Shown one piece after another: positions 33,300 to 64,000 of a DNA stretch of 64,000 nucleotides. The stretch covers positions 8,370,001-8,434,000 of the forward strand of contig NW_024704751.1 of assembly GCF_018977255.1 (NCBI RefSeq), given 5' to 3'. The stretch comes from Callorhinchus milii (Eukaryota). The translations under genes and the position numbers were made by a program. Every line of letters starts with the position of its first letter. Positions within the stretch are counted from its first letter, which is position 1. The notes beneath the pieces are model-generated. The model did not search any database. It saw only the letters and a list, made by a program, of their open reading frames with translations, and had not been told where the DNA came from.

Positions 33300-36200
33300 A
33301 TGCATCGTATCCTGAGATTTATCCGCACCTACTGGAACTATCTGGTTTTCTTCCTGACTCCCGTTGTGTTTTTGCCTTTACCCCTGCTGACACCAGGCAA
33401 GGTGAGCTCTTTACTTACTCACTTACCTTACTTATACTATACTTATATACCCGCCCTCCCCCACCCAAAACCACACGCAGACTCACACAGACACATCAGC
33501 GTCAAGAAGCATTTTAGAATTAAAAAGGAGAACCCAGAAGGAGGTTGCACTACTTCAGGAGAAATGCGGTAAATCGGTGGTAGAGAAGGAGTGGGTGGCG
33601 GAGCTATTTAATGAGTATTTTGCTCATGTCACCTAGGAGATGCATACTCTCACAATAGAGTTTAAAGGTGGATTGAGAAACAGCTATTTGGGATAAGAAT
33701 CCAAAAAGGAAACAATACTAGAAATGTTAGAAGAACTAAAAATTGAGAAATCACAGGGCTTTGATGGGTTTCGCCCACAAATATACAGTCAGTTCACTTT
33801 ATAGTATATTCTGTGAAGCACTTTGAGAGGTATAGACGTGAAAATGCTATGGATTGTCGTGCTAGGATCTCCCAATGGCATTTACAAAGATTTGATAACA
33901 ACAGCAACACCTTACACTTATATAGTGCCCTCCATGCAGGGTAGCGTCTCAGAGTCCTTAACAATGGCGGAGCCTGACTGCGAGATGGGGGAGGGGGGAG
34001 ATGGCCGTAAGCACGGTTGAAGAGAAAAATTTTCAGGCAGAACTTGAAAGAGGGAAGAGATGGGACAAGGCGGAGGGATTGAGGGAGAGTGTTCCAAAGT
34101 TTTGGGGTGTAGTGGCTGAAAGCGCGACCTCCAATGGTGGGGCGGAGGGTGCGAGGGACGAGCAGGAGCTCAGTGCCAGTCGAGCGGAGGTGCCGGGTGC
34201 TGGATTGGGGAGTGAGGAGGTCGGAGAGGTAGAGAGGTGCCAGGGAGTGAAGGGATTTGAACACGAGAGTGAGGATCTTGAAGTCGATCCATTTGGTGAT
34301 GGGGAGCCAGTGGAGCCTGGGCCAGAACCTGGCCGGATAAGGTATCACATGGAAGACTGGTGGAGAAACTCAGGGCACCTGGAACAGGGGAAACAATGGG
34401 GGTTTGGATAGAAAGATGATTGTAGGATGGGAAGCAGAGAGAGGGCTGAAACGTTTTTCTGGTTGGAGGAAGATGGTTAGTGCTAGGGCCGCTCCTATTT
34501 TCCATTGATATCAATGAGCTTGACTTGGATATAGAGAGTATGGTATCAAAGTATGTGGATGATACCAAACTAGCAGGTATAGTGAATAGTGAGGAAGATG
34601 GCAAAGACTGCAAGAGGATTTAAACAGATTAGCGCAATGGGCTGATCAGTGGCAAATGAAGTTTAATGCAGGGAAATGTGAGGTTTTGATAGAAAAAATG
34701 AGAGGATTACAGATATATATTGAATGGCAGTATCCTGGAAGGAACTGAGGAGCAAAGGGATTTGGGGGTCGTTGACCTGAAACCTTAACCTACTTTCCTC
34801 TCTGCATAGATGTTGCCTGACCTGCTGAGTGTTCCCAGTGATCCAATAACAGGAAGGTTGGTCTAATTCACTTTATCTTCTCTCTTACAGATAGCAGCAT
34901 GTGGATACATCATTCTCCTCATGGCTGTGTACTGGAGCACAGAATCCATTCCTCTGGGCATCACATCGCTCATTCCCTTAGTCCTCATCCCAATGTTTGA
35001 AATCATGACAGCTAAAGAAGTAAGCAAGGTGTCGACCATCACGTTCAAATACCCCATCAACGCACACAAAACAAGCAGTGACAATAAACAGTAAATCACA
35101 AATAATGCTAATGGCAGCTTGTGCATGTGTCAGACACCAGGTTGACCCCCACAAAATCATGATGGCAGAACCTTATAGCGCTATTTTACGCATGTTCACA
35201 TGGGGATAGGGGAGAGAATACCAGTAAATGGTAGACATCTTACATTATAACATTTAGAATCATCTGTCAATTCAGATGAACATTCTTTACCCTGTGTAAC
35301 ACAGCAAGTGCAGAGCTGACCAGCCTCAGTAACACCATCACACCAATGATGTACTGCTTTGTGTTCCAGGTGGCCCAGCAGTACATGAAGGACGCAAATG
35401 TGCTCTTTATTGGAGGGTTAATGGTGGCTCTAGCCATTGAAGAATGGAACCTCCACAAACGTATTGCACTTAGGGTGGTCTTGTTGGTTGGAGTCAAACC
35501 CGCTTGGTAACACTTCCATTCAAAAAAAAGTTATTGTGTATGAAAGGATCTCGATATAAAGCACCCAAAAAAAAATTAACTATATATTCTAGATACTGGC
35601 AGATAGAATGATATAAGGGCCCAACTGAGATTGTGTCACTCAAGCAATGGATAATGATCTTGAATATCATTGGACACACTCTCCAACCCTAGGGAGGAGG
35701 AAAGCTTTCTATTCCAGAAAGTGGTCGGGATGTCAAGCGCAACACTACGATGGTAGCAGAGGGAAGTGATTGGGTCACTGCCCATCATAGTCGATTGGCG
35801 GATCACTAACTGGGGATAATAATCTTTTAATAATAATAATAAAAAAAATAATTTAGTCATTGAATCCACAATTGTTTGTGGGACCCTGCTGTGTGTAATT
35901 GACTGTCATATTTCGCCGACAAAATACAGTTTCACTTGACAGTATGTTCTGTGACCCACCTTGGGATGTCTCAATGACGTGATAAGGCGTGATATCAAAT
36001 GCAAATATTATTATTATTATTATTATTATGAGCAAAGTGCTAAAGTTCTTGTTGCTCGCAGGTTAACACTGGGACTGATGGGGGTGACAGCATTCCTCTC
36101 CATGTGGATCAGCAACACGGCCACCACTGCCATGATGGTCCCCATCGCACACGCCACGGTTGAACAGCTCAGTATGATCGAGGACAAAGTGGGCAAGGAA

Positions 36201-39200
36201 ACCCGGGAGGAAATAATATTAACAGAGTCATTCAATGAGATAAGAATTGAGAATCACCCCACAGATAATGATGTGAAGCTAACAGGTAACAGTCCTATAA
36301 AAGAGAGTGAGACTATAAGATGTATTGTTCTCTTCTACACTTTCTACGCTTTTATGTTTATTGCTCTACAAACAGCCCCCGAAGAAACACTGAGGAGCTT
36401 AGAGAGGGTTACCAGTTAGTTGATTAGCCTTACACAAGGTAAGTACTTGCCATTCCCATTCATAGTGTGGTCACGATTAGAAACTGGCTGCACAAACCAC
36501 AGGGCTCGGCGTTTTGTCCTATGCACAGCTGCGTGTCCCGGTGGCCTCGGTGGTTTGGTTTGGTTACTTTCTGTCACCGTTAAAATTGAAATGGAAATAT
36601 TTCAACAGATCCCCGAAAGGCAGCCGGACAGAAAAGGAATCTCTTCAAGCTGGTCAGTTTGTGCATCTGTTACTCCGCCAGCATCGGTGGCACAGCGACC
36701 CTGACCGGCACAGGACCCAACCTGGTGATGCAGGGACAGTTTAGCCAGTTAGTGTTGCCGTTTCTATTGCTCACACAAACAACTGCTCTCAGTGGCTCGA
36801 TCGACATGAACTTCCTAGCTTCCTAGGCTGCAGCGGTCAATGAAATGCGAATAACTGCCCAAACTGTCCGCTAACATTCTCTGCCCTGTGAGGATATTAG
36901 CTGAGGTTCTCACCCACCTCACCTGTGCTCTCCCATCACAAACATTGCTCTTGTTCTAGCTTGCGCTGTTTGTTGCTGCTCCACTGGAAAGTCCACCCTT
37001 CATTGTAAGCAGGCCCTGAGTCCCATTACTGTGTGACACACACAGCCATTCTGTCTTATAAGCCCTGTTAGATACCGGTGTAGATAAAGCCAGTATCAGC
37101 TTAAGAGCTGATGGATTAAACACTCCTTAACACCTTCGCGTAAACACAGCCATTTGTAGTGGAGATTCTTTGCATTGAATACATCTTACTGTTAAGATGC
37201 AAGGACTCTGAGACTCTACCCTGTGTGGAGGGCACTGTATAAGTGCAAGTTGTTCTATTAATAGGGTAAACCCGGTAAATAGTTTACTCTTCTATTTTCC
37301 ATTCTTGTCTTTGTTCTCTTTATGCCATTTGTTGTAATTCAATTGATAATTTCTGCCACTTTCCCATCCATTCGAATGCTTTTCCCCACTGTTTTCTCAC
37401 TGTTCCCCGGGCCTTGGCTCTTACCAACAACCTGCACCTCGTACTTTCCAGCATTAGCTAAACAGAGTAAACACATTGCCCTGTGTCTGCGATAGAATGC
37501 CCACTCTTTCTCAAATGCAGGGCAATGTCCATGTGTATGTGTAACTCTCCATAGTCTAGTTTGGAGACTCTTTAAGTTGGTGATGTGTTTCTGCACATTA
37601 TCAGACAACTGGCTGACCTGACCAAAACACAACAAAGAGCCAACATTTTCATTGAATTCCATTTGCTACAGTCAGATCTCTTGCTCTCTTCCTTCCAGTG
37701 CTCAGCACCTTTGCTCCCTTGAATGTTTCGTTGTAAATTGATACTCTAGTATAATTCTTGTCTGTTTCAAAGGTTATTCCCCAGAACGGAGGAGTAGTTA
37801 ACTTTAGTTTGTGGTTTGCATACGCTTTCCCCAACATGCTGGTGATGCTGTTTCTCTGCTGGATCTGGCTGCAGATTTTATTTCTGGGAATTAAGTAAGT
37901 ATCTCACTTTAAATGGAACAAAGCTTTGTTTGTCTTCAAGTACCGAAGTGCAGATATTATAACTATCAAAGAAACCTCAGACATGTTTCCTCACTCCAGA
38001 AGCCTCTGTTTACCTAGCAGTAAATAGGAACTTGGTTGTTAGTTGATTGGCGGATCACTTTCCGAGGGTGATAATCCCTTCCAAAATAAATAAATCATTT
38101 GGTCACTCAATTGCACGACTGTTTGTGGGACACTGCTGTGCGCATTAACATCTAGGGTTCTGGCAGGTAGGAGAGGGTCTCTCTTTCTATCTACAGAGTG
38201 CAGTTACATGAATGAAGTCGTTGAAGTGTATTATGAAATGGGCCTTTTACCAACAGTTTTAAAACATTGTGGGGCTGTGGATCAGTGAAAACGTGGCAGG
38301 AGATAGCAGCCTACCAGGTCATCAGAGAGGAGTACAAGAAGTTGGGCAAGATGTCCTTTGCTGAAATCCTTGTTCTCATCCTCTTCATCATCCTGGTGCT
38401 ACTGTGGTTCACTCGGGATCCTGGATTCATGCCTGGATGGTCTGTATTGTTCTCTACCGCAAACAAGAAGTAAGTTCAAGGACATCTGTGCCTCTCATTT
38501 AAGCCCCCCTTCCTTTGACATCCTTGTTATAACTTGTTGACTATAGCACTGACTAAAGTCAGACTCTGGAATAGCCCAAAACAACTAAAAATGGAAGAAA
38601 TCAGCAAGACTTCCTACTCAAATTGACTGGCAAAAAAACATCCTCCCCATCAACAATGGACAAGCGCAACATAACACAGAGTCTGAGAGAATGAGACGGG
38701 AACGTACAGCAAAAGACCCAAGACAGGGAATTGAAACAATTAGTTTAAGGAGGGAGTGAGACCAGCGAGACTCGGGTTAACTTCCAATGAGATAAAAATG
38801 ACTTGTTAATCTGCACCACTTCCTCACAGTGGGTGACCTGCTTTGTTTCAGATATATCTCTGACGGAACAACTGTTATATTCATTGCGATCCTCATGTTT
38901 GTCCTGCCATCGAAGAGACCTCGATGGGGAAACTTGGACCAATCCAGCTCTATGAATAACACACAAGGTATGCATTGAGGGTGCGATCTTCCTCCCAGTC
39001 TTTTACACACACGGTACATGTCGCCAGTCAGCGTTGTCGGCCTTGAAAACACCCCGTTACCAATCAGTGTGTTTTTGCCGTTGATTTCAGTTGCAACGAG
39101 TTTCGATGAATCCTTGCTTTCAATTTTGATTTCTTCTTCTCTGTGAATTTTATTTCATTATTATTTTGCCTAAATAATCAATTCTGATTATCAGGGGAAC

Positions 39201-42200
39201 GTGACTGTGAGGAGGTAACCAAGTCTAACAGTGAGCGGACACTGAATAACCCCAGCAAAAGAACAATTACTACAACAGTGCTTCAGCACCGAGTGTTGGT
39301 TTAGCTTCCTGGCCAATTCTTGGTAGTTGGGCCTTCAGCGTTTCAACCCCACCCTCTGGAACTCCAACCCATAGCCCCTCTGCCTTGCCCCCTCCTTTGC
39401 CTCCTTCAAGGCCCATCTCAATGACCGTGGCTTTGGGCATCCCCCCCCTATTCCCCCTTAGCCCCCACCCATTCCTCTTAATTCGAACCCCCAGCCCGAG
39501 TGTAAAACCCTTTGCTGTCCAGCACCTTGACACGTCACCCTGACATCAAAGGCGCTATATAAATGCAAAATGTTGTTGTTGTTATTGTATATCCAAAAAT
39601 AAATCTCTCGCGCCCGCTCTCTCTCTCTCTCACGAGGCAGCAAACTGCAAAGGACTCCGATGCTTCTTTTTCATTTCTTTCACAAGTTATTAAATTCCCA
39701 TTGATTACTGACTGTGTTTCTTTGTTAAATGCTGACCAGTTGGGCAACAGAAGCCTCGGTCCTCGACACTCTTGACGTGGGATATAGTGCAACACAAGCT
39801 GCCGTGGAATGTGGTGCTGTTATTGGGAGGAGGTTTCGCCTTGGCAAAGAGCTGTGAGGTAATTCTAAATGATTATCCCTCCACCTCCAGAAATGGCTGC
39901 ATGACACTTGCTGAGTGATACACTGTGTGAAGCAACCCAAATAGACCTGTCCAAGATAGAACCCTCTACAACAGGGTCTGAACAGGGAACTGGTTCAAAT
40001 GGAAGCATTTCAGATCAGCTCATTTGGAATTGGAAAACATTAGTCAATCATCAACAACAACAACAAAATTACATGCGTATAGGGCTTTCACGTCGGGAGG
40101 ACATCCCAAGGCCCTGGACAGCCAGAATTATGGACCCGAGCTGGAGGTCAGGGAGGGCAGGGGGTGGAAGCAGGGAGATCGAAAGCATGGTCGAACAGGA
40201 GGGTCTTGAGATGGGATTTGAAGGTGGCAAGGGAGGGGGGCGAGGTGGAGGGACTGCGGGATGGAGTTCCAGAGAATGGGGGCAGAGCGGCAGAAGGCCC
40301 GCTTGCGAATAGTGGGGAGAGGCCGTGATGGAGGCAAGCAATGTTGCAAAGGTGGGGAAAAGCTGAATAGGTCAAGGCACAGATATGTGGTTTAAAAGGA
40401 CAATTGAGAGTCCAACAAAACACTGAGGTTCCACGGTGGCTTAGTGGGCTAGAATGGGCATTCATGTATAGTGATGGTATCAATGCCAGAGGTGAAAAGG
40501 TGATGGAGTAGAGTAAGGAAACTTGCCTAAGGTTTCACCCCGTCCAGGAATCGAACCCGGGTCCTCTTACTTGTGAGGCAATCACACTAACCACTACGCA
40601 ATGGGATTACAATATACTACATCATAAGGCGTCCTATAATCACTTGGAGGCTGTCACCTCCTCAAAAATGTCTGTGAGATTAGTCAAAGTAGACCTACCT
40701 TTGGTGATCCCATGTTGGTTGTCATTTGTTAAGGTTATTTTTATTGGTAATCTTCCACTTCCTTTCACCTCAGGCGCTGACAGCATCACCATCCATGGTT
40801 GCACACGCCATCTTGCTAATAATAATAATAATAATCCTTGCATTTGATATAGCGCTTTTCACGTCGGGAGGACGTCCCAAAGCACTTCACAGAGCCAGTC
40901 TGGAACCTCGGGGTCTTGTTTGACCCTCAACTATCCTTTCTACCCCACATCTGTGCCATGACCCGCTCTGCCTTCCCCCACCTCTGCAAAGTTGCCCGAC
41001 TCCGACAGTGTCCCACACCGCAGGTCCCCAAAACCCTCATACACGCCTTCATTACATTGAGGCTCGACTATGCAAACTCATTGCTTGTCACCCTCCCCAA
41101 CTCCTTCCTCCACAGGCTGCAGATCATCCAGAAATCTGCAGCCCGTATCCTATTCCGTACTAGGCTCCGCGACCCTATCACTCCCATCCTTGTCCAACTC
41201 CACTGGCTTCCCATCACACAGAGGATACAGTTCAAGATCCTGGTCCTCACCTTCAAAGCCTTCCATGGTCTTACTCCCCACTACCTCTGCGACCTCCTAA
41301 CTCCCTACCATCCTGCTCACTCCCTCCGCTCAGCAGGCTCCACCTGCTTTACTTCCACCGCCTCGCTCGCCCCACTATTCGCAAGCGGACCTTCTGCCGC
41401 TCTGCCCCCACCCTCTGGAACTCCATCCCGCAGTCCCTCCACCTCGCCCCCCTCCCTTGCCACCTTCAAAATTCTGCAGCTTGTCCCCGCTCTATGAACA
41501 TAATGCCCCCATCCTCGCCTGACTACACTGGCTTCCCATCCCCCAACCCAAAGGATCAAATTCAAGATCCTTGTCCTCACATTTAAAGCTCTCCACGGTC
41601 TTGCCCCACCCTACCTTGTGTGGGGTGGGACAAGTTACATTTACGTATCCGTGCCTTGATCTTCTCAGGTTTTCCCCACCTTTGCAAAATTGCACGGCCT
41701 CTCCCCTTATCCCCCCCCCCCAGGCTCGAGTAACTCTTTGCTATTCAAATATGATTCAAAATTCTGCGGCTCATGTCTTCACAGCACCAGGCTCTAGAAA
41801 CTTAATGCCCCATCCACACCTGAATCCACTGGCTTCCCATCCCCCAACCCAAAGGATCAAGTTCGAGATCCTTGTCTTCACTTTTAAACCCCTCCATGGA
41901 CTTGCTCCACCTAACCTTGTGTGGGGTGGACAAATTATATTTAGATATAACTATAATTTGTTGTTGTTGATAACTCTCATTGCATGTAAAACACAGCGTA
42001 CACGGTTATGGTATGTTACTGGATTACCGTACTCTCACCAGTGGACAGCGAGTGTTAAGCTCACAGGACACTCTTGTAGCGCACAGTGTAGTGAAGAGCT
42101 TTTGGGTATAGTTTCTACAGCAAGAGATGCAATCCGTGTCTCAGTGCTGAAGGTCTGGATAAAACCTGCCCAAAATGATAAATCGATTCCCTTGAGAGAA

Positions 42201-44184
42201 GATTAAAATATTGTCCACTGGTGGGAGGTCTGTCATCCAGAAACAGGATCCAGATTTACCACAGAATAAGAAGCTGTGACTCTGTTTGCTGAGACATGAT
42301 TCCATTGTTTTTCAGGTGTCGGGTATGTCTGAATGGGTGGGTAATCAGCTGTTACCTCTCAAGAACATCCCACACTGGGCCATAGTGATTATTTTATGCT
42401 TGATGATGTCCATCATCACAGAGTGCACCAGCAACATTGCTACTGCCACCATCTTCCTCCCCATCATGGCTTCAATGGTAAAGCAGGAGTTCTTTAATGC
42501 CACTTTATGTTATCTTGTCCAGATGTCAGTTTGACTCAGTTGGTACCACTTCCACATGGAAATCCCAGAGATAGATTGTTGGAATGAAATGCAGCCAGGC
42601 TGGTATGCCTCATTTCTCTAGTTACATGGAATGATACAAGCACAGAACAGGTAATTCGACCAACTAGTCCACATAAATTATATTCCATTCAAGACCCTTT
42701 CCCTCCAAATTGATACAATATAGGGTCCCAAATTGGGCCAAATATGAAAGTTTATTATATTGACAAGTTGTCTAATTGGGACACAATGGCTCCTTTGGGA
42801 TTTAGTAACGAGAACTTCAACTGTTCCTTGGATATGTTGGTAGATTTAACTTCATTGCCAATGTCTTTTCTACTTGTCAATCTAGGCTGTATCCATTCAG
42901 ATCAACCCTTTGTATGTCATGATTCCTACCACCATAAGTGCTTCCTTTGCCTTCATGTTGCCTGTAGCAACGCCTCCCAATGCCATAGTTTTCTCCTATG
43001 GGCACCTCAAGGTCCTGGACATGGTGAGTACATCGAGGCAATGTGAGAAAAGGGTCATCCTTCCCCCAACTGAAGATGGAAATTTCAATTGGGTCAAGCT
43101 TCAATCTATTAACGCAGCATTTCAGTTTCCAGAATTGGTCGAATTCTTAAATAGTCTTCTTAATTTTGATATCATTTTTAAGAACTTACAGAAACTGACT
43201 TTAAAGTTAAAACTGAATTAAATAATTTGTCAAATTCTGTACACTCTGAAATGCTACAATCTGGACAGGTGGAATTTACCTATGGGAGTTTTAACATTCA
43301 AATTAGGAAATAGGGTGCTGCTCATTGTCATAAAAAAAACTGGGAGGGGAGGTGGGGTGGTGGGGGGAGAGTTGGGGGGTGGGGGCTATGAGATTCCCCA
43401 CAACCCATTTAGTTAATAATTAAATTAGCCACAAAAACAGCAATGGCATTGGTTACTTGGTCGACAAAGACTATATTCATCAGGTTAATCCACAAGTTGA
43501 ACAATGCCCCCAAAAAATAATGCTTGAGTTTGATATAGCGCTTTTCATGTCTTCTAGACTTATTATTGTTTTTTTTTCTTGAGGGATTATTATCAGGCAG
43601 GTAGAGTAAGGAAACTTGCTCATGGCTTTTGCCCTGTCGGGAATCGAACCCAGGTCCCTCGCCTGTCAGGGGAGTGCTCTAACCACTGAGCTACAGGATT
43701 CCTAAAGAGCCAAGAGCAATAATAACAATAATAATAATCTATGGGTTTGATATAGCGCCTTATCACGTCATTGAGATGTCTCAAAGCGCTTCACAGAATA
43801 TACTATAAAGTATATAAATTGTATATGTAAAATATATAAAGTATTATTATATACACAGAATATATTGGTAAAGTATATATTAAAGTACATAAAGGAGTCA
43901 GTGTACGGGTTTCACTAATGCTGTGCTTGTGGCAAGCCTTCCTTCAGATGTAGACGCCCTCTGTACCCTGGTCTGTCTGTCTATCTACTAAACTATGATT
44001 TAGCCTCATTGAAGTACCTTTTAGGTCGAATCTAACACTGATCTTTGTGTTCTGACAGGTTAAGACAGGAATGATCTTGAACCTGGTGGGAGTGATTTGT
44101 GTGACTCTGTCCATCAACACCTGGGGTCACATCCTGTTCCATCTGGACACGTTTCCCGCCTGGGCAAACGTGACCAGTCTATGA
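33300..44184 (+). CDS. SLC13A5: SLC13A5 (NaCT/INDY)-like Na+/citrate cotransporter, copy A; one apparent -1 frameshift in exon 6 (pseudogene or assembly error)
   Basis: Exons 33300-33401, 34891-35019, 35370-35506, 36062-36285, 36609-36747, 37773-37894 (122 nt; paralogs have 123), 38257-38469, 38852-38967, 39740-39858, 42316-42477, 42886-43023, 44059-44184. NaCT-type motifs [60 protein letters not shown]. Gene structure is solid; orthology needs a tree. Confidence 0.78.
33570..34770. mobile_element. Nested cluster: CR1 ORF2 fragments (+) interrupted by a SINE tail and an antisense L2 3' end
   Basis: CR1 RT motif [17 protein letters not shown] at ~34480-34690; L2 ORF 33794-34348(-) [31 protein letters not shown]; SINE tail ~33770-33850. 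Confidence 0.85.
35790..36030 (+). mobile_element. SINE ending ~30 nt before the exon 4 acceptor, shared by copies A, B and C
   Basis: The same (tta)n-tail/aaagttcttgttgctcgcag junction occurs at ~36030, ~47497 and ~56978. Confidence 0.8.
40050..40430 (-). mobile_element. Internally deleted L2 3' end
   Basis: Reverse complement matches 40925-41000 and 41370-41470 and ends in a (ttg)n tail. Confidence 0.8.
40895..41470 (+). mobile_element. L2 LINE ORF2 C-terminal fragment
   Basis: ORF 40916-41497 [49 protein letters not shown]. Confidence 0.92.
43515..43810 (-). mobile_element. SINE copies (deleted full-length copy plus a second tail)
   Basis: Head taaccactgagctacagga at ~43680-43700; tails at ~43520 and ~43725. 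Confidence 0.75.
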
Positions 44185-44613
44185 TGCAGCTCGCTGCTTC
44201 AGGGTGACAAGTCGTGCTATGTATCAAACTCAGAGCTGATTTCTATACGAGAGACACTGAAGACATTCAGCCAATATTGAGCACATAGAATGTGCAGAAG
44301 GCAGACCCACCCTCATCGAACATCAGTCGTAGTTGTGAATCTAGCCTTGACCAACCTTTATGGTCGGCCAACACAACACATTTTCAAGGAAAAACTGAAA
44401 ACACGCTACCAATCAATCATGGACTTGCCTTGCCTCGTGCGAATGTTCAAGGAGAGGGATTGTGTGTGGGCTCCTTGACAGTGGGCTTCAGGTGCATTCT
44501 CGTAGATCTTATTTTCCTTCAGGTAATTGGGGAAGAGGGTTTGACATATTCTCACTAATGTTACCAGCATTAAACGGATATCTGTCTAAACTGCTAGGAT
44601 TTAAATGAAGTTT

Positions 44614-44619
44614 AATAAA
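44614..44619 (+). terminator. Candidate polyadenylation signal of copy A
   Basis: AATAAA ~430 nt after the stop. Confidence 0.55.
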
Positions 44620-45784
44620 CTTTTAATGAAAAGGTCTGATTATTTATGGTCTCAATAGTTCTCTCCCTTGGCACGGACTACAGACGATCCAGAACCCCGC
44701 TGCTCTGTCCTCTCCCACACCAGGCTCCTCGAGTCCACCGATCCCAGACTCACTCAGCTCAACTGGCTCCCCATCTACTAGCAGAACACATTCAAGATCC
44801 TTGTTCTCTCATTCAAATGCCCCCACAATCGCCCCTCCCACCCCATGTTTGCGAACTCCTTCAACTATGCTTAACACAGACACAGTTTAAACAGCAGAAA
44901 CTTCATCTCTCCTCTTGTGAAGCATTCCTGCCAGTGAATGTCCACCCAAACTGTAAAAAAACACAGTGCTAGATATTAATAATAATAATATTCTTGCATT
45001 TCATATAGTGCCTGATCACATCTCTGAGATGCCTCAAAGTGATTCACAGAATATACCATATAGTGAATCAACTGTATATTTTGTAGGTGAAACACAATTG
45101 CACACAGTGATGTCCCACAGACAGTTGTGGATTGAGTGACCAAATTATTATTATTATCATCTTTTTTTAAGGGATTTTTATACACTGAGACTGAGGTGGT
45201 TTAATGGATAGTGAAGATCAGACTGTAGAATGCATGTGGTTTGTGTTCTCTTCCTCTCTTCCTCAAAATCTCAAAATCAGCCTGATTTGGGGGCACTTTT
45301 AGCTCTAGTTTTGACAGCAATATGTTGATGTAAGAGGCTTTTTAAGTTAAATTATCATTCCCTTTAATTTTCTCCTAAATTGAGGGGTGGGGGTCTGAGC
45401 TGTGGTTCAGCATGACACTGCCCAGCTATTTATATGCTCTGTTTGTCTCTCTGTGCGCTCAGCTCATGCGCTTTTGACGCATCAAGTCCCAGCTCATGGT
45501 ATCAATGTGATGTCGGTCACAGCTGAGGTTGGGACAGACTGAGCTGGAGTTGGGAGGGGAATGATCAGCAAGAAGACAATCAGCAAAACAGATCCCCCTG
45601 GACAGTCCCCCTGATCTCCAGACCCAGGTTGTGAACACAGGACAGGAGAGTCGGGGCAAAAGCCCCCAATCCATCTCTGGGACACACTGGGCTGATAGGG
45701 ACACCCGCACACACCAGGTTCTCCATCTCTTCACTGCTGAGACTCACGCTGTGTGTGTGTGAGTGTGTGAGTGAGTGAGTGGGA

Positions 45785-51700: not shown

Positions 51701-52978
51701 AACCAGCTCAACCCACTGAAGACCATCCCACACTGGGGCATCGTGATTATATTATGCTTACTGATATCCATCTTTACAGAATTCACCAGCAACACTGCCA
51801 CTGCCACTCTCTTCCTCCCCATCCTGGCTTCACTGGTAAGCAGGGCCTCTTTTCATTTATTTCACAAGTTGTCTCTTGCTCAAGTCTACATCATATAAGA
51901 TGCATGGTAAGACGGAAACCATTCAGGGTTCAATGTGAGTTTTCCCAGTTCAATTTGTCTTCAATATAAGCGTTTAGGTGGGCTTTAAAGCGGTCACCTC
52001 TCCCTCTCCCTCGTTCAGTGTCCGACCTGCCACAGTACAGCACCTCAAGACGTGAGGAGCATTGTATAAATGTAAGTCATTGTCTCAAAGTAAAAGATAT
52101 CTGTTGATATCTGTTGCTAACTAATTTCTTTTCTGCTTATCATTCCAGGCTGTAAAGCTTAAGATCAACCCTCTGTATGTAATGATTCCTTGCACTGTAA
52201 CTGCTTCCTTTTCCTTCATGTTGCCTGTAGCAACTCCTCCCAATGCCATAGTTTTCACCTATGGGCACTTGACAGTCATGGACATGGTAAGTAGTACAAA
52301 GAGTTGCAAGTGAGAGGATCCGAGTTCGATTCCCGGGCAGGGTGAAACGTTAGGCAAGTTTCCTTACTCCACATGTCTCTGCTTACCTGACAGTAAATAA
52401 CAACTTGTTTGTTAGTTGATTGGCAGATCGCATTTCGGGGGTAATAACTCTTTTTTTAAAAAAAACGATGTGGTCACTCAATCCACGATCGTTTGTGGAC
52501 ACTGCTGTGCCCAATTGGCTGCTGCGTTTCGCCCACAAAATACACAGTCAATTCACTTTACAGTGTGTTCTGTGAAGCGCTTTGGGACGTCCTCCCGACG
52601 TGAAAAGCGCTATATCAAATGCAAGGATTATTATTATTATTATATTCTGTAAAGCACTTTGACATGTGTTGAAGCTGTGATAAGGCGCAAATGCAAGGAT
52701 TATTATTATTATTCATTGTTATTAAATGAGTTAATTCAGTATGATTCCTTAAAAGGACCACTTTTATTCTATGTTTGTGGTATGCCACTCCTTAGGAACT
52801 TTGACTTCACCTTTTAATTTGATAAATCTAATACTATCTTTTTCTTTTATAGGTTAAGGCTGGGTTCGTTATGAACCTGGTGGGAGTGGTTTGCGTTACT
52901 CTATCCGTCAATACCTGGGGTTGGATGTTTTTCAATATGGACCAATTTCCTGCCTGGGCAAACACTACAAATTTATGA
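45785..52978 (+). CDS. SLC13A5: SLC13A5-like Na+/citrate cotransporter, copy B, intact (575 aa)
   Basis: Exons 45785-45901, 46393-46521, 47018-47154, 47529-47743, 48114-48252, 48850-48972, 49819-50031, 50605-50726, 51096-51202, 51674-51835, 52149-52286, 52853-52978; 1728 nt open. Motifs [51 protein letters not shown]. Confidence 0.8.
52300..52715 (+). mobile_element. Long-subfamily SINE plus a second tail in the last intron (duplicated at ~61768-62185)
   Basis: B box gagttcgattccc, Deu-like core, (tta)n tails. Confidence 0.85.
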
Positions 52979-53399
52979 TGTGGCAAGCTGCTCAGAAAGT
53001 CACGTCCATACCTCGTATCAAACATTATTTGAGGTTACTTACACGCCAAGAACACTGAAGCCTGCCAATCAGAATATACCATATGTTCAATGAACTCCAG
53101 AAAACAAAAAACTCCACCAAACCAAGCTGTGAAACCCCTTCCCTCCTTCTACATTAGGGTCAATTATAGTACCTTACAACCTCTTCTATGTTATTCTTAA
53201 TGGTGATATCCTGCAGTCAGGCAATGTTGGCAGCAGTTATTGGAGTCCTGGTCCTTTCCCATTTATTGCTTATTTATTCTCATTAAAAGTGATTGTGGAA
53301 TGGTGTTTAATGGCAGTTCCTCAGTTATGATTATTAAATGTATGTCTGTCCAACTACTGGGATTTTAATGATTTTTAATATATTGATAAGTTGACTCCA

Positions 53400-53650
53400 C
53401 TCCCTACTCGAGTCTCCCCAATCCGAGTTCCGACCTGCCCACAGCACCAAGCCAGTGCGTGTCAAAGTTACAAATGACGTCCTCTCTCTGTGTGCCTCCC
53501 TCTGCCTCCTTGTCCTGCTGAACCTTTTCGCTGCTTTCAACAGTGTTGATCACGCCATCCTCCTCGACTGCCTCGCCTTCATCCACTTCAGTAGGATCGC
53601 ACTGTCCTGGTTCGAGTTCTATGTGAGCTACCGCCATCACTATGCCTCTG
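53400..53650 (+). mobile_element. L2 RT-domain relic in the copy B 3' region (duplicated at ~62867-63117)
   Basis: QSEFRPAHST..VKVTNDVL..LVLLNLFAAFNSVDHAILL resembles QSGFR..HSTETAL.KV.ND...LVLLDLSAAFDTVDH. Confidence 0.8.
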
Positions 53651-53742
53651 CAAAGATTCTGGAAGGGTTAATGGCCGGTATTCATTGTCAACCCACTGAC
53701 AGACACGATGTGCAATGAAGCAACAATAGGGACAATTGCAGT

Positions 53743-53748
53743 AATAAA
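53743..53748 (+). terminator. Candidate polyadenylation signal of copy B (63210-63215 for copy C)
   Basis: AATAAA with a downstream T/GT-rich tract; ATTAAA at 53282 is an alternative. Confidence 0.45.
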
Positions 53749-54827
53749 CTGAAAGAATTGTATTTATTTTGACTTTGAGTACACAGCAGGTTAAGCCTGA
53801 CATTGATTGTATAATTAGAATGTACAGTATACTGTACTAAACACACGTAGTGAACATACACCTGGCAGTGATGAGTTCTTGTGAAGGCATTCCTGCCAGT
53901 GAATGTCCACCCGAACTATAAAAAAAAGTGCTGGATATTAATAATAATAATAATATTCTTGCATTTCATACAGTGCCTGATCACATCTCTGAGATGCCTC
54001 AAAGTGATTCACAGAATATACCATATAGCGAATCGACTGTACATTTTGTAGGTGAAACACAATTGCACACAGCGATGTCCCACAAACAGTTGTGGATTGA
54101 ATGACCAAATTATTATTATGATTATCTTTTTTTAAGGGATTTTTATACACAGACTGAGGTGGTTTAATGGATAGTGAAGATCAGACTGTAAAAGGCATGT
54201 GGTTTGTGCTCTCTTCCTCTGTCTCAAAATCAGCCTGACTTGGGGACACTTTTAGCTCTAATTTTGACAGCAATATGTTGGTGTAAGAGGTTTTTTCAGT
54301 TAAATGAATCATCCCTTTAATTTTCTCCTAAAGTTAGCTCAAACGTGAAGCATTTGCTGCCTGGTTCAGAGGGGTTTGGTGTCAATGAAAATGAATACCA
54401 AGACATTGGTGGGGCTGGGGGTGTGGGGGGTGGGGGTCTGAGCTGTGGTTCAGCATGACACTGCCCAGCTATTTACATGCTCTGTTTGTCTCTCTGTGCG
54501 CTCAGCTCATGCGCTTTTGACGCATCAAGTCCCAGCTCATGGTATCAATGTGATGTCGGTCACAGCTGAGGTTGGGACAGACTGAGCTGGAGTTGGGAGG
54601 GGAATGATCAGCAAGAAGACAATCAGCAAAACAGATCCCCCTGGACAGTCCCCCTGATCTCCAGACCCAGGTTGTGAACACAGGACAGGAGAGTCGGGGC
54701 AAAAGCCCCCAATCCATCTCTGGGACACACTGGGCTGATAGGGACACCCGCACACACCAGGTTCTCCATCTCTTCACTGCTGAGACTCACGCTGTGTGTG
54801 TGTGAGTGTGTGAGTGAGTGAGTGGGA

Positions 54828-57800
54828 ATGTTTGCAGACACATTGCTTCCCACCCTAAGGTTTCTCAGGGCCAACTGGAGCTATCTGGTTTTAATCCTGA
54901 CGCCTATTATACTTTTGCCTTTACCCCTCCTGATACCGAGCAAGGTGAGATCTTTAACATACTTTACTTCTACTCTAGTTATATACCCGTCCTCTGACAA
55001 CCCCCCCCACCCCAATAGATCCATCCTACCTTCTTCTGCATCCATTGCACTCAGCCTCCAGGTGGAAGAGAGTTTAGTGGAAATCCAATGGAAATCCACA
55101 ACAGCTCAATCAGTGTCTGCAGCAAACAAACTGGTTGATGTTTGGGGGTTGAGCCTTCAATCAGAATTGGAGTTGGGGCAGAGGTGCCAGACACAGAACC
55201 TCAGTGGGTGCCCAGTACAGGAAGTTTGAGCTGATTCACTTTATCTTCTCCTTTGTCTCCTCCAGACCCTCCTCGTCAACCACGCTTTCGGTCACCCTCC
55301 TATACCCCTACCCTCCCTGCTGTCCACCCTTCCTGATCCCAGTCCCAACCCCCAGCTCGGGTCCAAATCCTTGACTGTCCAACGCCTTGGGACTTCTTCC
55401 TGATGTGATGTTGTTGTTACAGATAGCGACTTGTGGATACACCATTCTCCTCATGGCTGTGTTCTGGAGCACGGAAGTCATTCCTTTGGGCATCACATCG
55501 CTCATTCCCATAGTCCTCATCCCAATGTTTGGAATCATGCCAAATGAAAAAGTGAGCAAGGTTCAGCCTAGTCAATCATCACGTCACAAATACCTCTCGA
55601 CGCACACAGGCAGTGACAAAACATAAACATTCACATCATTACTATTGTGTTGGCTTCACCACAATCGACAGGGCTTTCTGTCCAATGCCTACCATCTACA
55701 TTCATGATGGCAGAGCTTCATTGGATAAGTAAGCACAGCACATCCGCTTTAACATTAGTCTTGAAAGATAAGAGATTGTATTGTGGGAGAGACGCCAGTA
55801 AATGGTGAGACACCTTAAGTTATAACATTTAGAATTATCTGACATTTCATTATCCGACAATTTCACCCACAAAATATACAACCAATTCACTCTACAGTAT
55901 ATGCTGTGAAGGCACTATATCAAGTATTATTATTGTTGGTTCAGATGGACATTCTTTACCCTATATAACACAGCAAATACACAGCTGGCAGCCTCAGTAA
56001 CACAGTCACACCAATGAAATGCTACCATGTGGTTCTTTGTGTTCTAGGTGGCTTTGCAGTACATGAAGGATACGACCATGCTCTTTGTTGGCGGTTTAAT
56101 GGTAGCTATCGCCATTGAAGAATGGAACCTCCACAAACGTATTGCATTGAGGGTGCTCTTGTATGTTGGAGTCAAGCCGGCTTGGTAACAATGACCTACA
56201 TTGATATAGCGCCCTTCACGCGCATTAGTGTGCTAGAGCACTTGACAGTGGCGGTGTCTGACACTGAGCCAAGGGGAGAGTGAGGTGGTGGGGAGGTGAC
56301 CCTAAGCATGATCAAAACGGAAGGTCTTTAGGCGGGATTTGAAAGCAGCAAGGGAAGGGGCCAAGGCGGAAGGATTGAGGCAGAGAGTTTTACAGTTTCG
56401 GGGCGTAGGGACTGAAGGCACGGTCATCGATGGTGGAGCAGAGGGGACGAGGGACAAACAGGAGGCCGGAACCAGAAGAGCGGAGACAGCGGGTGGAGGA
56501 GAGGGTTGGGGGTGTGTGAACAGATCGGAGAGGTAGGGAGATGCGAGGGCATGAAGGGATTTGAAAACGATTGAGAGGATCTTGAAATCGATCCTGGACT
56601 ACAATACATCCAGAAAGAGCTCCCTCTCTTTCGGAGTGTAGTAGCTGAGAATGAGAGGGAGCAGAAGGGAGAGCCTCTCTCAACCTCTTACATCTTGTGG
56701 GCTTGTGGAGTCCTGTAGCTTAGTGGTTAGAGCACTCGCTTTGGGCAAGTTTCCTTACTCCACACGCCTGATAATCCCTCCAAAAAAAATAATAATAAAA
56801 AATTGGTCACTTCAATCCACAACTGTTTGTGGGACACTGGTGTGTGCAATCGGCTGCAGCATTTTGCCCACAAATGTACAGTCAATTCACTTTACAGTCT
56901 ATTCTGAGAAGCACTTTGAGACGTCTAGAAGACGTGAAAAGCGCTGTATCAAATGCAAGGATTATTATTATTATTATAGGCAAATTGTTAAAGTTCTTGT
57001 TGCTCGCAGGTTAACACTGGGACTGATGGGGGTGACAGCATTCCTCTCCATGTGGATCAGCAACACGGCCACCACTGCAATGATGGTCCCCATCGCAAAA
57101 GCCGTGTTGGATCAGCTCAGTCTGAGCGAGGATAAGTTTGACCAGACAATTGAAGAGGAGTTGCAAACAAAACAATCACTTAACCTGCTACCCGATGAAA
57201 TACCAGTCTTGAAAATATTTCCAGGTAACAGTCATAAAACAGCTTGCAAGACTTGTTTGACATTGAAATGCATTTCTTCTTCTATAGTTTGTCCTCAATA
57301 ACAACAATTTCATGCGGTGCCTTTCACGTCAGGAGGACTGGCACTAACAGGAGGAGGGAGGAAGTGGTTGGTGATGGAAACAGAAGCCTCGGGATGCTCC
57401 GGGATGTAAGGGGATCCGAGACACTATCCCGTGTGAAGGGTGTTGTACGAGTTCAGATTGTTTTTGTAGGGTTGACTTTGGCCTTCAGGATGATTGTGCA
57501 GCTACCAGTGTCCTGTCTGAGCTCCTATCAGTGGTTTGGTTATTTTCTGACACACTCACTCCACGTTAAAATTGAAATGGGAATGTTTCAACAGATAATG
57601 AAAAGGCAACCAGAGCGAGAAGGAATCTCTACAAGCTGGTCACTCTGTGCATCTGTTACTCCGCCAGCATCGGTGGCACAGCGACCCTGACCGGCACAGG
57701 ACCCAACCTGGTGTTGGAGGGACAGTTTAACCAGTGAGTGCTGCCGTTTCTATTGCTCACACAGCTACTCTCAGTGGCTCAATCTACGTGAAAGTGTTGA

Positions 57801-60800
57801 AGCTACCTAAACTCTATCCCAGGCTGTGAATTACTGCCCAAACTGTCCACTAACATTCTCTGCCCTGTGAGAATATTAGCTGAGGTTCTCACCCGCCTCC
57901 CATCAGAAATATTGCTCTCATTCCCTCTTGTGCTTCATTGTAAATAGTCAGAATCCAGAGCGCCCACTCTGGATAACATTACTCTGTGATGCACACAGCC
58001 ATTCTGTTATATAAACCCTAATAGAATACCGGTGCAGATAAAACCAGTATCAGGCTTAGAGTTGGTGGGTTAAACACTCCCTGACACCTTCACGTAAACA
58101 CATGCATTTGTAGCCGAGATTCTTTGCATGTTCTCTTCATTTGTCTGATTCGAAGGATTTGGAACTTATGTTCTAATAAGGTAAACCCAATGAATCTCAT
58201 TTTTTAGTCTCCTCTGCCTCTAATGCTTCTTTTAGTTGATCTCAACTGTCTTTCCGAAGCCTCCTGGATTCTCACTGCTTGTGTTCCTTGTCTATTTCTG
58301 TGTCTAACATATTTGTGTTTATTTAAAAAGGTTATTCCCAGAAAATGGGGGCGTAATTACTTTTAGTTCGTGGTTTGTGTACGCTTTCCCCAACATGCTG
58401 GTCATGCTGTTTCTCTGCTGGATATGGCTGCAGATATATTTTCTGGGATTTAAGTAAGTATCATATCTTATATAAATGTAAGTTGTTGTTATAATATTGA
58501 AAGAATGTTTTGTGGTTATGATTTGCATTTTTTGATATGTCCCTTTCCATTTTTCTTAGCTCCCCTAATCTCTTGTTTGACCTCTTCTGTACAGTCTGGT
58601 TTGTATTCAGCCCAAGGGTCAATCTCTCCTTTCTCCCTACACACTTTATAAACCTTCCTTTTCTTCATCTCCCTTTGTATTTTACTATTTATCCAAGCTA
58701 AGGCTTAGGGACGCCGGAGTGTGTGTTGGGAGTTCTGCTGGAGTTTAACCAGCCCAAACCCTCGCCCCCCCTCCACCCCAATCTTTTGGGCTTTGTCTTG
58801 CATGGTGAACAAGAGAAAAATGGAAGAGTCCCTCCTTCCATGACTGGTCTGTCATCAGCAACCAAACTACTCAGACCACCACAGAGACATGTCGCTATTC
58901 CGACATTCTATTGCCAAGCATATCTCTTTGAGCCTAGTTCAGCCTCAAGGAGACCAAATAGCTTATCTCTCCCCCAAGAAGGATAGCCACGAGTTAGTCA
59001 GTTGATATCTACCTCGGTTTGAGCCCTCATTAGCTGAATGGCAGCTTCCAGGAACTTCCTGTGAGCGATCTGGTGAACAGCACAGCTCAGCATGAAATGC
59101 CAAAGGGCACTGCCACCAGCCTCCTGGCACAGTTCAGACACATACCTTTCCTTCTACAATGTGTCATTACATAATATGGCAGTGGATATGTCAGGAGAAT
59201 ATTTCAAAGAGCTTCATAGAGTTTACAGTGACTGTGTACTTTTGGGCAAATTGAAGTGCATTCTGAGATGGATCTTGTTCCAACAGTTTCAAAATATTGT
59301 GGGGCTGTGGATTATTGAAAGTGTGGAAGGAGTTAGTAGCCTACCAGGTCATCAAAGAGGAGTACAAGAAGTTGGGCAAGATGTCCTTTGCTGAAATCCT
59401 TGTTCTCATCCTCTTCATCTTCCTGGTGCTTCTGTGGTTCACTCGGAATCCTGGATTCATGCCTGGCTGGGCTACAGTGATCTTCGGCAAAAGCAAAGAG
59501 TAAGTTCTGTATTTTAATCCTCAAACAAATGAGGCAAACGTGGTGTTGGGTTGCATTAGCAGAGAGATTAGCACACCCAACAAAATAAGTGGGGGGTCTT
59601 TAATTGAGAAAAACAACAACAAATTACATTTATGTAGCACCTTTCACGTCGGGAGGACAATGCAAGGCTGTGGACAGTCAGGGATTTGGAGAAGCCTGTA
59701 TGGATGGTCATGAACATGGCCTGCATGAACAGCGGCTCTCCTCCTGCACCACTACTGAATGCCGAAAAGACAGAGGCTCTCCTGCTTGGCTCCCATCATT
59801 TGCCTACACCCCTCAGTCGCTGGTCACACCAAACTGCATGGATGGTCAATCCATCTGGCGCAGATACTGTGGAATCCCGGTGCTTGTTTGAGGTACTCCC
59901 TGCACTCAGCACTAGCGTGCTTCATGTCCCCTCTGATCCGCTTCACCATTGCTGGGCCAACTTTCAGGCATTCTGCTGGGTGAAGCGCTTTTTGAGATGT
60001 CCTCCTGACGTGAAAGGCGCCATATAAATGCAAATTGTTCTTCACAGTCCATTCTTCACTGCTTTTTTTCAGATATATTTCTGATGGTACAACCGTAATG
60101 TTCATTGCGCTCCTCATGTACATTCTGCCATCAAAGAGACCACGATTGGAAAGCTTGTTTAAAGACAAATCCAGCACTGAGCAGCACATACAAGGTGTGT
60201 ATCCAGGTTACGATCCTCCTCCCAGCAGTTGACACACACAGTACCTGTAACCAGTCTGTAAGGTTGCCCTGTTTGATGTGATAAGGCACAATACACTGCT
60301 GTGTGTAATTGGCTGCCGCATTTCACCCACAAAATACACAGTCAATCCACTTTTCCAGATATCCTGTGAAGCACTTTGAGATGTCTCAACGTGATAAGGC
60401 GCTATATCAAATGCAAGGATTATTATTATTATTAATAATAGAAATGTAAGTTAGGTCTTTCTCCCTCATCAGCAGTGGAAGGCTAACCAGAAGTTATTAA
60501 AATGTCAACGTGTGATTTTCAAAGCTGGTTTATTGTTGTATTTCTTTATTAAATGCTGAACAGATGAAAAGCCTTCAACACTGTTGGATTGGGAAGTCGT
60601 ACAACATAAACTGCCGTGGAATGTGATGCTGTTATTGGGAGGAGGCTTTGCCTTGGCAAAGAGCTGTGAGGTAATTGTAAATGCTTATCCGTCCACCTCC
60701 ACAAGCAGAAATGGCTGCATGACACTTGCTCAGCGACACTTTGTGTGTAGTAACCCAAACAGTCCTGTCTAAAAGAGAACCCTCTACATCAAGATCTGAA

Positions 60801-62444
60801 AAAGAACTTGTTCGGGTGAACTCATTGATTGTATTTGAATCCAGTCTGGACTTCCAAAGAGCCATTTTACAGGAGCTCAACCCTTTCTAATCCCAAAGCC
60901 AAATCTGTTCAACTTTCGGTCCCGATCTCCTCATTCAGTGAAAACCTTGTCTCACACAAATCAAACTCTCACCCATGGTGGTGGTTTTCCCATCTTCATA
61001 GATGATGACTGACTGATGTCAAGCAGTTGGGTTGGATTGGTCATTCTTCTTGTTGCATCCGGAGACAGGAGCCAGACAGATTTCCCACAGAATTAGAAGC
61101 TCTGACCCTGGTATTGTGACATGATTCTGTTCTACTTTCAGGCATCAGGTCTGTCCAGATGGTTGGGTAACCAGCTCAACCCACTGAAGACCATCCCACA
61201 CTGGGGCATCGTGATTATATTATGCTTACTGATATCCATCTTTACAGAATTCACCAGCAACACTGCCACTGCCACTCTCTTCCTCCCCATCCTGGCTTCA
61301 CTGGTAAGCAGGGCCTCTTTTCATTTATTTCACAAGTTGTCTCTTGCTCAAGTCTACATCATATAAGATGCATGGTAAGACGGAAACCATTCAGGGTTCA
61401 ATGTGAGTTTTCCCAGTTCAATTTGTCTTCAATATAAGCGTTTAGGTGGGCTTTAAAGCGGTCACCCCTCCCTCTCCCTCGTTCAGTGTCCGACCTGCCA
61501 CAGTACAGCACCTCAAGACGTGAGGAGCATTGTATAAATGTAAGTCATTGTCTCAAAGTAAAAGATATCTGTTGATATCTGTTGCTAACTAATTTCTTTT
61601 CTGCTTATCATTCCAGGCTGTAAAGCTTAAGATCAACCCTCTGTATGTAATGATTCCTTGCACTGTAACTGCTTCCTTTTCCTTCATGTTGCCTGTAGCA
61701 ACTCCTCCCAATGCCATAGTTTTCACCTATGGGCACTTGACAGTCATGGACATGGTAAGTAGTACAAAGAGTTGCAAGTGAGAGGATCCGAGTTCGATTC
61801 CCGGGCAGGGTGAAACGTTAGGCAAGTTTCCTTACTCCACATGTCTCTGCTTACCTGACAGTAAATAACAACTTGTTAGTTAGTTGATTGGTAGATCGCA
61901 TTTCGGGGGTAATAACCCTTTTTTTTTAAAAAAACGATGTGGTCACTCAATCCACGATCGTTTATGGACACTGCTGTGCGCAATTGGCTGCTGCGTTTCG
62001 CCCACAAAATACACAGTCAATTCACTTTACAGTGTGTTCTGTGAAGCGCTTTGGGACGTCCTCCCGACATGAAAAGCGCTATATCAAATGCAAGGATTAT
62101 TATTATTATTATATTCTGTAAAGCACTTTGACATGTGTTGAAGCTGTGATAAGGCGCAAATGCAAGGATTATTATTATTATTCATAGTTAAATGAGTTAA
62201 TTCAGTGTGATTCCTTAAAAGGACCACTTTTATTCTATGTTTGTGGTATGCCACTCCTTAGGAACTTTGACTTCACCTTTTAATTTGATAAATCTAATAC
62301 TATCTTTTTGTTTTATAGCTTAAGGCTGGGTTCGTTATGAACCTGGTGGGAGTGGTTTGCGTTACTGTATCCGTCAATACCTGGGGTTGGATGTTTTTCA
62401 ATATGGACCAATTTCCTGCCTGGGCAAACACTACGAATTTATGA
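54828..62444 (+). CDS. SLC13A5: SLC13A5-like Na+/citrate cotransporter, copy C, intact (575 aa)
   Basis: Exons 54828-54944, 55423-55551, 56048-56184, 57010-57224, 57595-57733, 58331-58453, 59287-59499, 60073-60194, 60564-60670, 61142-61303, 61617-61754, 62319-62444; exon sizes equal copy B; 24 aa differences by hand count. Confidence 0.8.
56290..56978. mobile_element. Antisense L2 3' fragment followed by a near full-length SINE (largely deleted in copy B)
   Basis: L2 ~56290-56600(-); SINE ~56707-56978(+). Confidence 0.85.
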
Positions 62445-63343
62445 TGTGGCAAGCTGCTCAGAAAGTCACGTCCATACCTCGTATCAAACATTATTTGAGG
62501 TTACTTACACGCCAAGAACACTGAAGCCTGCCAATCAGAATATACCATATGTTCAATGAACTCCAGAAAACAAAAAAACTCCACCAAACCAAGCTGTGAA
62601 ACCCCTTTCCTCCTTCTACATTAGGGTCAATTATAGTACCTTACAACCTCTTCTATGTTATTCTTAATGGTGATATCCTGCAGTCAGGCAATGTTGGCAG
62701 CAGTTATTGGAGTCCTGGTCCTTTCCCATTTATTGCTTATTTATTCTCATTAAAAGTGATTGTGGAATGGTGTTTAATGGCAGTTCCTCAGTTATGATTA
62801 TTAAATGTATGTCTGTCCAACTACTGGGATTTTAATGATTTTTAATATATTGATAAGTTGACTCCACTCCCTACTCGAGTCTCCCCAATCCGAGTTCCGA
62901 CCTGCCCACAGCACCAAGCCAGTGCGTGTCAAAGTTACAAATGACGTCCTCTCTCTGTGTGCCTCCCTCTGCCTCCTTGTCCTGCTGAACCTTTTCGCTG
63001 CTTTCAACAGTGTTGATCACGCCATCCTCCTCGACTGCCTCGCCTTCATCCACTTCAGTAGGATCGCACTGTCCTGGTTCGAGTTCTATGTGAGCTACCG
63101 CCATCACTATGCCTCTGCAAAGATTCTGGAAGGGTTAATGGCCGGTATTCATTGTCAACCCACTGACAGACACGATGTGCAATGAAGCAACAATAGGGAC
63201 AATTGCAGTAATAAACTGAAAGAATTGTATTTATTTTGACTTTGAGTACACAGCAGGTTAAGCCTGACATTGATTGTATAATTAGAATGTACAGTATACT
63301 GTACTAAACACACGTAGTGAACATACACCTGGCAGTGATGAGT

Positions 63344-64000
63344 TCTTGTGAAGGCATTCCTGCCAGTGAATGTCCACCCGAACTATAAAAAAAAGTGCTG
63401 GATATTAATAATAATAATAATATTCTTGCATTTCATACAGTGCCTGATCACATCTCTGAGATGCCTCAAAGTGATTCACAGAATATACCATATAGCGAAT
63501 CGACTGTACATTTTGTAGGTGAAACACAATTGCACACAGCGATGTCCCACAAACAGTTGTGGATTGAATGACCAAATTATTATTATGATTATCTTTTTTN
63601 AAGGGATTTTTATACACAGACTGAGGTGGTTTAATGGATAGTGAAGATCAGACTGTAAAAGGCATGTGGTTTGTGCTCTCTTCCTCTGTCTCAAAATCAG
63701 CCTGACTTGGGGACACTTTTAGCTCTAATTTTGACAGCAATATGTTGGTGTAAGAGGTTTTTTCAGTTAAATGAATCATCCCTTTAATTTTCTCCTAAAG
63801 TTAGCTCAAACGTGAAGCATTTGCTGCCTGGTTCAGAGGGGTTTGGTGTCAATGAAAATGAATACCAAGACATTGGTGGGGCTGGGGGTGTGGGGGGTGG
63901 GGGTCTGAGCTGTGGTTCAGCATGACACTGCCCAGCTATTTACATGCTCTGTTTGTCTCTCTGTGCGCTCAGCTCATGCGCTTTTGACGCATCAAGTCCC
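63344..64000 (+). repeat. Start of tandem unit 3 (upstream region of a probable further SLC13A5-like copy)
   Basis: Essentially identical to 53877-54533 apart from an N at 63600; the offset predicts an ATG near 64295, outside the window. Confidence 0.88.

Follow-up and report, generated by a model that had tools for sequence, protein, structure and literature searches.

A tandem array of SLC13A5 transporter genes beside SLC13A2 in the elephant shark, with possible selection and substrate change in the younger copies

The stretch of DNA analysed here (the window) comprises 64,000 nucleotides of Callorhinchus milii, positions 8,370,001 to 8,434,000 of the forward strand of contig NW_024704751.1 (assembly GCF_018977255.1), and carries an array of genes for the citrate transporter SLC13A5 (NaCT). 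Three genes, A, B and C, lie head to tail and are followed by 657 non-coding bases of a further unit, the whole array being downstream of SARM1, SLC46A1 and SLC13A2. We lean towards a history in which SLC13A5 expanded in tandem beside SLC13A2 in the holocephalan lineage, and in which gene conversion, selection-driven divergence and a shift of substrate away from citrate would have followed. The array alone is ordinary. What would give it interest is the excess of amino-acid replacements that separates B from C, together with the recurrent changes at positions proposed to set selectivity for citrate. A search of the open-access literature found no paper on the array, nor any that deals with how many SLC13A5 genes cartilaginous fish have.

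Each gene has 12 exons on the plus strand, and 33 of 33 introns have GT-AG boundaries, confirming the three head-to-tail genes of an original prediction made from the sequence of this stretch. Copy A occupies 33300..44184 (exons 33300-33401, 34891-35019, 35370-35506, 36062-36285, 36609-36747, 37773-37894, 38257-38469, 38852-38967, 39740-39858, 42316-42477, 42886-43023 and 44059-44184) and encodes 575 residues if a break in exon 6 is read through. Copy B, at 45785..52978 (exons 45785-45901, 46393-46521, 47018-47154, 47529-47743, 48114-48252, 48850-48972, 49819-50031, 50605-50726, 51096-51202, 51674-51835, 52149-52286 and 52853-52978), and copy C, at 54828..62444 (exons 54828-54944, 55423-55551, 56048-56184, 57010-57224, 57595-57733, 58331-58453, 59287-59499, 60073-60194, 60564-60670, 61142-61303, 61617-61754 and 62319-62444), each have an open frame of 575 residues. 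The two age layers that had been predicted are seen in the protein identities, which are 72.6% for A and B, 72.1% for A and C and 95.8% for B and C; identity to the upstream SLC13A2 is about 58%. The predicted identity of about 99% between B and C holds for the DNA of their units but masks differences at 24 of 575 protein residues.

Unit 1 (44913..53876, plus strand, 8964 bp) and unit 2 (53877..63343, plus strand, 9467 bp) each consist of a 5' flank, a gene (B and C, respectively) and a 3' flank. They differ by 90-bp and ~450-bp indels, the longer being a segment of intron 3 present only in unit 2. The first ~450 bp of unit 1 are 5% divergent from unit 2 (24 of 452 aligned bases, 9 of 209 inside a short interspersed nuclear element and 15 of 243 outside it), and the 3' flanks of B and C differ at 1 of 898 bases. 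The unit junction is present twice, both times without a gap. Unit 3 does begin at 63344, as predicted, but its 657 bases in the window (63344..64000, plus strand) hold no coding sequence; 656 of them are the same as in unit 2 and the remaining base is N. Its first exon would be expected near 64295, past the window end. The homology between A and B extends to the promoter region and the 3' flank, and A is therefore an older whole-gene duplicate, with about 0.31 synonymous substitutions per site (dS) between A and B and a ratio of replacement to synonymous rates (omega) of 0.55–0.59.

A, B and C almost certainly belong to SLC13A5, in agreement with the original prediction. In a maximum-likelihood tree of 53 rows (4 window proteins and 49 named proteins picked from 290 fetched) they form one clade (support 100/100), sister to 17 elasmobranch SLC13A5 rows (99/96). 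This tree is unrooted and omits isoform duplicates, two Rhinoraja proteins and one Hemitrygon protein, most teleosts and all 14 unnamed matches, as well as SLC13A1/3/4 and mammalian rows, none of which was among the matches listed. A topology in which A, B and C were constrained to join SLC13A2 was rejected by the approximately unbiased (AU) test (p = 0.016). Each copy has the SLC13A5-type state at six of six diagnostic columns and the SLC13A2-type state at none, and each has the TGTGPN motif with Gly228. Of 11 solved structures matched, human NaCT scores best (E = 1.9e-204 for A and 2.8e-198 for B). It is also the top fold match (8uvb, E = 1e-36) of the predicted structure of B (P0001, predicted local distance difference test score 77), which points to a DASS fold. 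The A and B models score 210 and 220 bits with TIGR00785 (cut-off 198.6), and there is a precomputed match to PF00939. The cartilaginous-fish origin is supported by the sister relation to elasmobranch SLC13A5 and by B, whose exon 7 is 100% identical to the SLC13A5-like isoform X2 protein of Callorhinchus milii.

SLC13A5 is a single gene in human, whereas the elephant shark has at least three tandem copies. Relative to human NaCT (the 7JSK and 8UVB family), these copies retain SNT, TGTGPN, T508 and F500 but differ at V466, which is Ile in A and Thr in B and C; B and C also have C462F, N87T and N249T. SLC13A2 (NaDC1) shares the family and the fold, and Thr466 is found in many fish SLC13A2 proteins, but it forms a separate clade. 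The original prediction held that pipelines might well label all copies SLC13A2-like. NCBI, however, already annotates A as SLC13A5 and B as SLC13A5-like, and it is the upstream SLC13A2 that carries the name SLC13A5 in UniRef (P0260). Database names also exchange SLC13A2 and SLC13A5 relative to the tree in P0274 (Xenopus laevis 'slc13a2-prov') and in P0226 and P0282 (ray and shark 'Na+/citrate cotransporter-like').

The comparison of B with C shows more change in exons than in introns. Exons differ at 29 of 1728 bases and introns at 34 of 5436 (exon excess, p = 1.5e-4). The 29 coding changes comprise 25 replacements and 4 silent changes, whereas local neutral rates would give 8.7 replacements (p = 5e-6, or p = 7e-4 with a cluster in exon 7 counted as one event). 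The replacement rate is also above that of introns plus silent sites (p = 4e-5). The cluster lies at 59310..59340 (plus strand) in copy C, where 6 base changes within 25 nt are all replacements, affect 5 residues and are all derived in C; the flanking introns differ at 0 of 833 and 2 of 573 positions. Identical runs between B and C reach 1380 bp, and the non-coding differences are overdispersed (p = 0.02). We infer that the B/C duplication is older than the unit interiors suggest and has been homogenised by gene conversion. We consider it somewhat more likely than not, going by these substitution patterns, that selection maintains or drives the amino-acid differences. On human numbering and predicted helices, 4 of the differences fall within H4c or directly behind it, another 5 affect the loop and the first turn of H6b, and a predicted disordered cytosolic loop holds 7, the helix names being mapped from the accessible parts of PMC11584011 and PMC13370374.

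Conversion of C by A was considered and set aside. C is like A at 9 of the 29 differences, B is like A at 16 and neither is at 4, which suggests to us that both branches have changed. In one model of tandem duplicates that undergo gene conversion, peaks of divergence persist at selected sites. The elephant shark units resemble that model in their homogenised introns, divergent edge and replacement-only exon 7 cluster; they differ from it in being only two copies from one assembly.

The core contacts of the substrate site are conserved, but other residues of the pocket are altered. The carboxylate contacts N141, T142, T227, G228, N465 and T508 (PMC13370374, in the text available) and the affinity determinant F500 (PMC7868109, likewise) are all retained in A, B and C. 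Among 158 named TGTGPN proteins, 156 combine Cys462 with Val466, and the two that do not are A (Ile466, Cys462) and B (Phe462, Thr466). C is the same as B at both positions, which belong to the second substrate/Na+ hairpin. The codons lie at 51782..51796 on the plus strand in B (C462F at 51782-4 and V466T at 51794-6), with the same changes at 61250-61264 in C. In SLC13A2-type (TGTTPN) proteins Thr466 occurs in 45 of 88, and the upstream SLC13A2 also has it. In the bacterial homologue VcINDY, Pro201 and Thr379 were proposed to select succinate versus citrate, Gly and Val at these places favouring citrate (PMC5413979, in the portion available). Pro201 has been equated with the NaCT glycine (excerpted text of PMC10980263), and the equivalence of VcINDY 379 and NaCT 466 is our own reading of the motif. 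Compared with VcINDY and its humanised variant MT5 (same portion of PMC5413979), B and C have the VcINDY-type Thr at T379/V466 but keep the NaCT-type Gly at P201/G228; reversion thus affects only one of the two positions proposed to set selectivity. It is possible, if somewhat short of an even prospect, that the substrate preference of B and C has shifted away from citrate. The option of new carboxylate substrates in the original prediction gains some sequence support from C462F and from V466T at a proposed selectivity position. Altered pockets together with the replacement excess hint that the extra copies may be taking on new cargo and not just adding dose.

Extra SLC13A5 copies are not peculiar to the elephant shark. 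Two distinct genes occur in at least 3 of the 15 elasmobranch species that have SLC13A5 among the matches listed, and clustering at 90% could hide further duplicates. The pairs are P0111/P0115 in Carcharodon (88% identical), P0156/P0228 in Cetorhinus (82%) and P0238/P0246 in Hemiscyllium (91.5%), with differences along the whole length. Each pair has one canonical copy and one in which Gly228 is replaced by Pro or Val, and both G228P and G228V are deleterious in the accessible data of a human mutational scan (PMC12204159). These duplicates resemble the elephant shark case in belonging to the sister clade of A, B and C and in having one copy per pair with an altered substrate site. The alterations differ, however: the sharks change G228/P229 in the first half of the protein, and B and C change V466/C462 in the second. 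A tree joining the altered shark copies with B and C was rejected (AU test, p = 8e-9). P0115 and P0232 of lamniform sharks and P0238 of Hemiscyllium have a common Ser at human position 87 and altered residues at 228-229, yet do not group in the tree. The altered shark copies could represent one old galeomorph duplication homogenised by conversion instead of two events.

The trio N87T, N249T and C462F was found, among 238 named proteins, only in the database model of B and in two models of Conger conger. The latter (P0109 and P0110) are fused two-repeat models, and the Conger repeat is a long-branch teleost SLC13A5. A wider and decidedly tentative reading of these residues is that SLC13A5 duplicates of cartilaginous fishes and conger eel were repeatedly retuned off citrate (V466T in B and C, G228P/V in lamniform and bamboo sharks), with B and C now diverging under selection. 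A holocephalan-specific acceleration was discarded. It first appeared as 29-30 changes at 248 conserved columns, but the comparison sequences had been included in defining the columns. Columns defined from bony fish and tetrapods give 16% for A, B and C versus 8-15% in 17 elasmobranch rows, and the root-to-tip lengths match (0.82-0.94 for A, B and C; elasmobranch means 0.86 for SLC13A5 and 0.42 for SLC13A2).

The favoured history can be laid out in steps. An older duplication gave A and the ancestor of B and C, at the dS quoted above. A unit of 9.0-9.5 kb with the whole B gene and its flanks was then evidently copied head to tail, presumably by unequal crossing-over, giving B and C and, provisionally, unit 3. 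Gene conversion would have held the unit interiors at about 0.6% difference and left the 5' edge at 5%. Selection may then have acted, with moderate support, on the B/C differences, most of which map to the cytosolic loop or close to the arm helices H4c and H6b. In the final and weakest step, all copies would still be Na+-coupled, elevator-type carboxylate importers, A being closest to a citrate transporter and B and C having moved through Thr466 towards C4/C5 dicarboxylates (succinate) or an altered affinity for citrate.

Several observations weigh against this history. According to the available text of PMC5413979, VcINDY can do without T379 in transporting succinate, and its humanised form showed improved citrate binding but never transported citrate; G228, the other citrate-favouring residue, is kept in B and C. 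Because T379 is dispensable and Gly228 is kept, the substrate shift is a lead and not a result. The human scan scores three other changes, N87T, N249T and R112K, as neutral (accessible data of PMC12204159). Between B and C the per-site ratio of replacement to silent change, 1.9-2.4, falls short of significance if silent sites are the only reference (p = 0.07-0.15), and the excess does likewise if set against the four most divergent introns (p = 0.08). A single conversion or multi-base event might account for the exon 7 cluster. The 24 residues that distinguish B from C include none of the listed substrate contacts, and the divergence of the two therefore probably concerns kinetics or regulation. 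The identity tree has neither an SLC13A1/3/4 outgroup nor a mammal. Finally, fast SLC13A5 evolution is chondrichthyan-wide, at about twice the SLC13A2 rate in all chondrichthyans sampled, and relaxed constraint fits it equally well. The last point leads to a birth-and-death account, in which genuine copies are redundant and collect residue changes without gaining a new function. The A/B omega, the frameshift in A as assembled and the insignificance against silent sites are all in keeping with it. It predicts, however, replacement near the intron rate, and three times the intron rate is seen; the frames and all splice sites of B and C are intact, as is the older model of A, and the core contacts are conserved. 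We regard this account as rather unlikely.

Some of the array might instead be a product of assembly, B, C and unit 3 being in part haplotypes that were joined in tandem, or a mosaic made from copies that had collapsed. The near-identity of unit 3 to unit 2, the single difference between the preceding 3' flanks, the base missing from exon 6 of A and an N within a run of T's (base-level errors are thus likely) would fit, as would the fact that a near-exact database representative was found for B only (P0001, 523/524; the best for C is 499/524). The gap-free repeated junction, the large indels and the divergent 5' edge speak against it, and if the copies were artefacts no concentration of replacement changes in the exons would be expected. 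For the array at large we find it improbable. B and C are very likely both real, and the array has at least A and one younger copy, very probably with a second. That unit 3 is a false duplication is a distinct possibility, though we would not presume it; the word 'expanding' in the original prediction depends on this unit, which is indistinguishable here from such an artefact, and A, B and C in tandem stand without it.

Amplification of an unchanged citrate importer for dosage, in the service of a lipid-rich liver or of mineralised tooth plates and cartilage, uses raised by the original prediction, would agree with gene conversion of the two younger copies. In mammals NaCT functions in the liver, and tooth and enamel defects follow when it is lost (PMC7868109, in the text available). 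Chimaeroid tooth plates contain the unusual mineral whitlockite (PMC7596707), but the word 'citrate' has no occurrence in the retrieved portion of that paper, and nothing found here ties the elephant shark copies to either tissue. Dosage predicts a homogeneous protein, yet B and C differ at 24 residues with near-identical introns and lack the near-invariant C462 and V466. Its prospects are slimmer still. Descent of the copies from the neighbouring SLC13A2, or from a separate SLC13 lineage, is scarcely credible. The array does lie directly behind SLC13A2, Thr466 is common in SLC13A2-type proteins and the tree has no outgroup; but the clade, the AU test, the diagnostic columns and the NaCT structure matches all point to SLC13A5, and the linkage of the two genes looks ancestral, since they are apparently on one contig in 8 of the 8 elasmobranchs listed with both.

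Copy A is not open as assembled. Its exon 6 (37773..37894, plus strand) has 122 nt versus 123 nt in B, C and SLC13A2, and a stop follows soon downstream; a C run at about 37779-37782 has four C's where five are needed. When read through, A equals XP_007894716.1 (intact) at 521 of 521 residues and the current model P0003 at 574 of 575. The older database model of A (P0002) reads through exon 6 as in B and C, and the break is therefore probably a one-base homopolymer error of long-read assembly. P0003 has one extra residue, from an exon 5 donor 4 nt later that restores the frame. This may be a real alternative splice, or the break a real allele; no alternative in-frame acceptor rescuing exon 6 was found by eye. 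A long-read C. milii assembly with 68-fold PacBio coverage has been published (PMC8302630, as far as its available text goes), and the window presumably derives from it.

A few details of the copies may be recorded here. The codon equivalent to the start codon of A is TTG in B (45785-45802) and C (54828-54845); in both, a start at an in-frame ATG lying 5 codons farther upstream would lengthen the protein by 5 residues. Exon 1 is absent from isoform X2, the database model of B. A TATA-like word ~360 bp before the start (45427 and 54470) has a one-base difference between B and C, among only 2 in 404 proximal bases. Judged by eye, exon 4 opens with ~69 bases that A (36062-36130) and C (57010-57078) have in common, possibly an old conversion tract.

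Upstream of the array, the SLC13A2 orthologue (18358..29002, plus strand, 13 exons, open frame of 605 residues) is a neighbour and not an array member, and lies outside the coordinates first considered. It is sister to 11 elasmobranch SLC13A2 rows (100/99), and its model includes a small extra exon of 57 nt (23474-23530). Two further genes, with approximate limits, serve as synteny markers. A partial SLC46A1 (proton-coupled folate transporter) is at 11720..14927 on the minus strand, where 12942-13865 matches 7bc6 (E = 1.5e-120) and a G-rich low-complexity array at 13940-14610 fills an intron; the 3' exons of SARM1 are at 770..3780 on the plus strand (E = 5.5e-29 for 2058-2417). The order SARM1, SLC46A1, SLC13A2 is what we take to be the gene order at human 17q11.2. 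Human SLC13A2 is recorded in that band.

The array may illustrate selection working against gene conversion. The probable one-base error in copy A is flagged as having distorted its current reference model. If B and C behave like A, the array is an ordinary, already annotated tandem duplication. The basis of the preference of NaCT for citrate over dicarboxylates is only partly settled, and natural paralogue pairs that differ at selectivity positions supply ready proteins for testing a gene that matters both in human disease and as a drug target. If the wider reading is true, such fish duplicates would amount to natural tests of how a DASS protein comes to select citrate.

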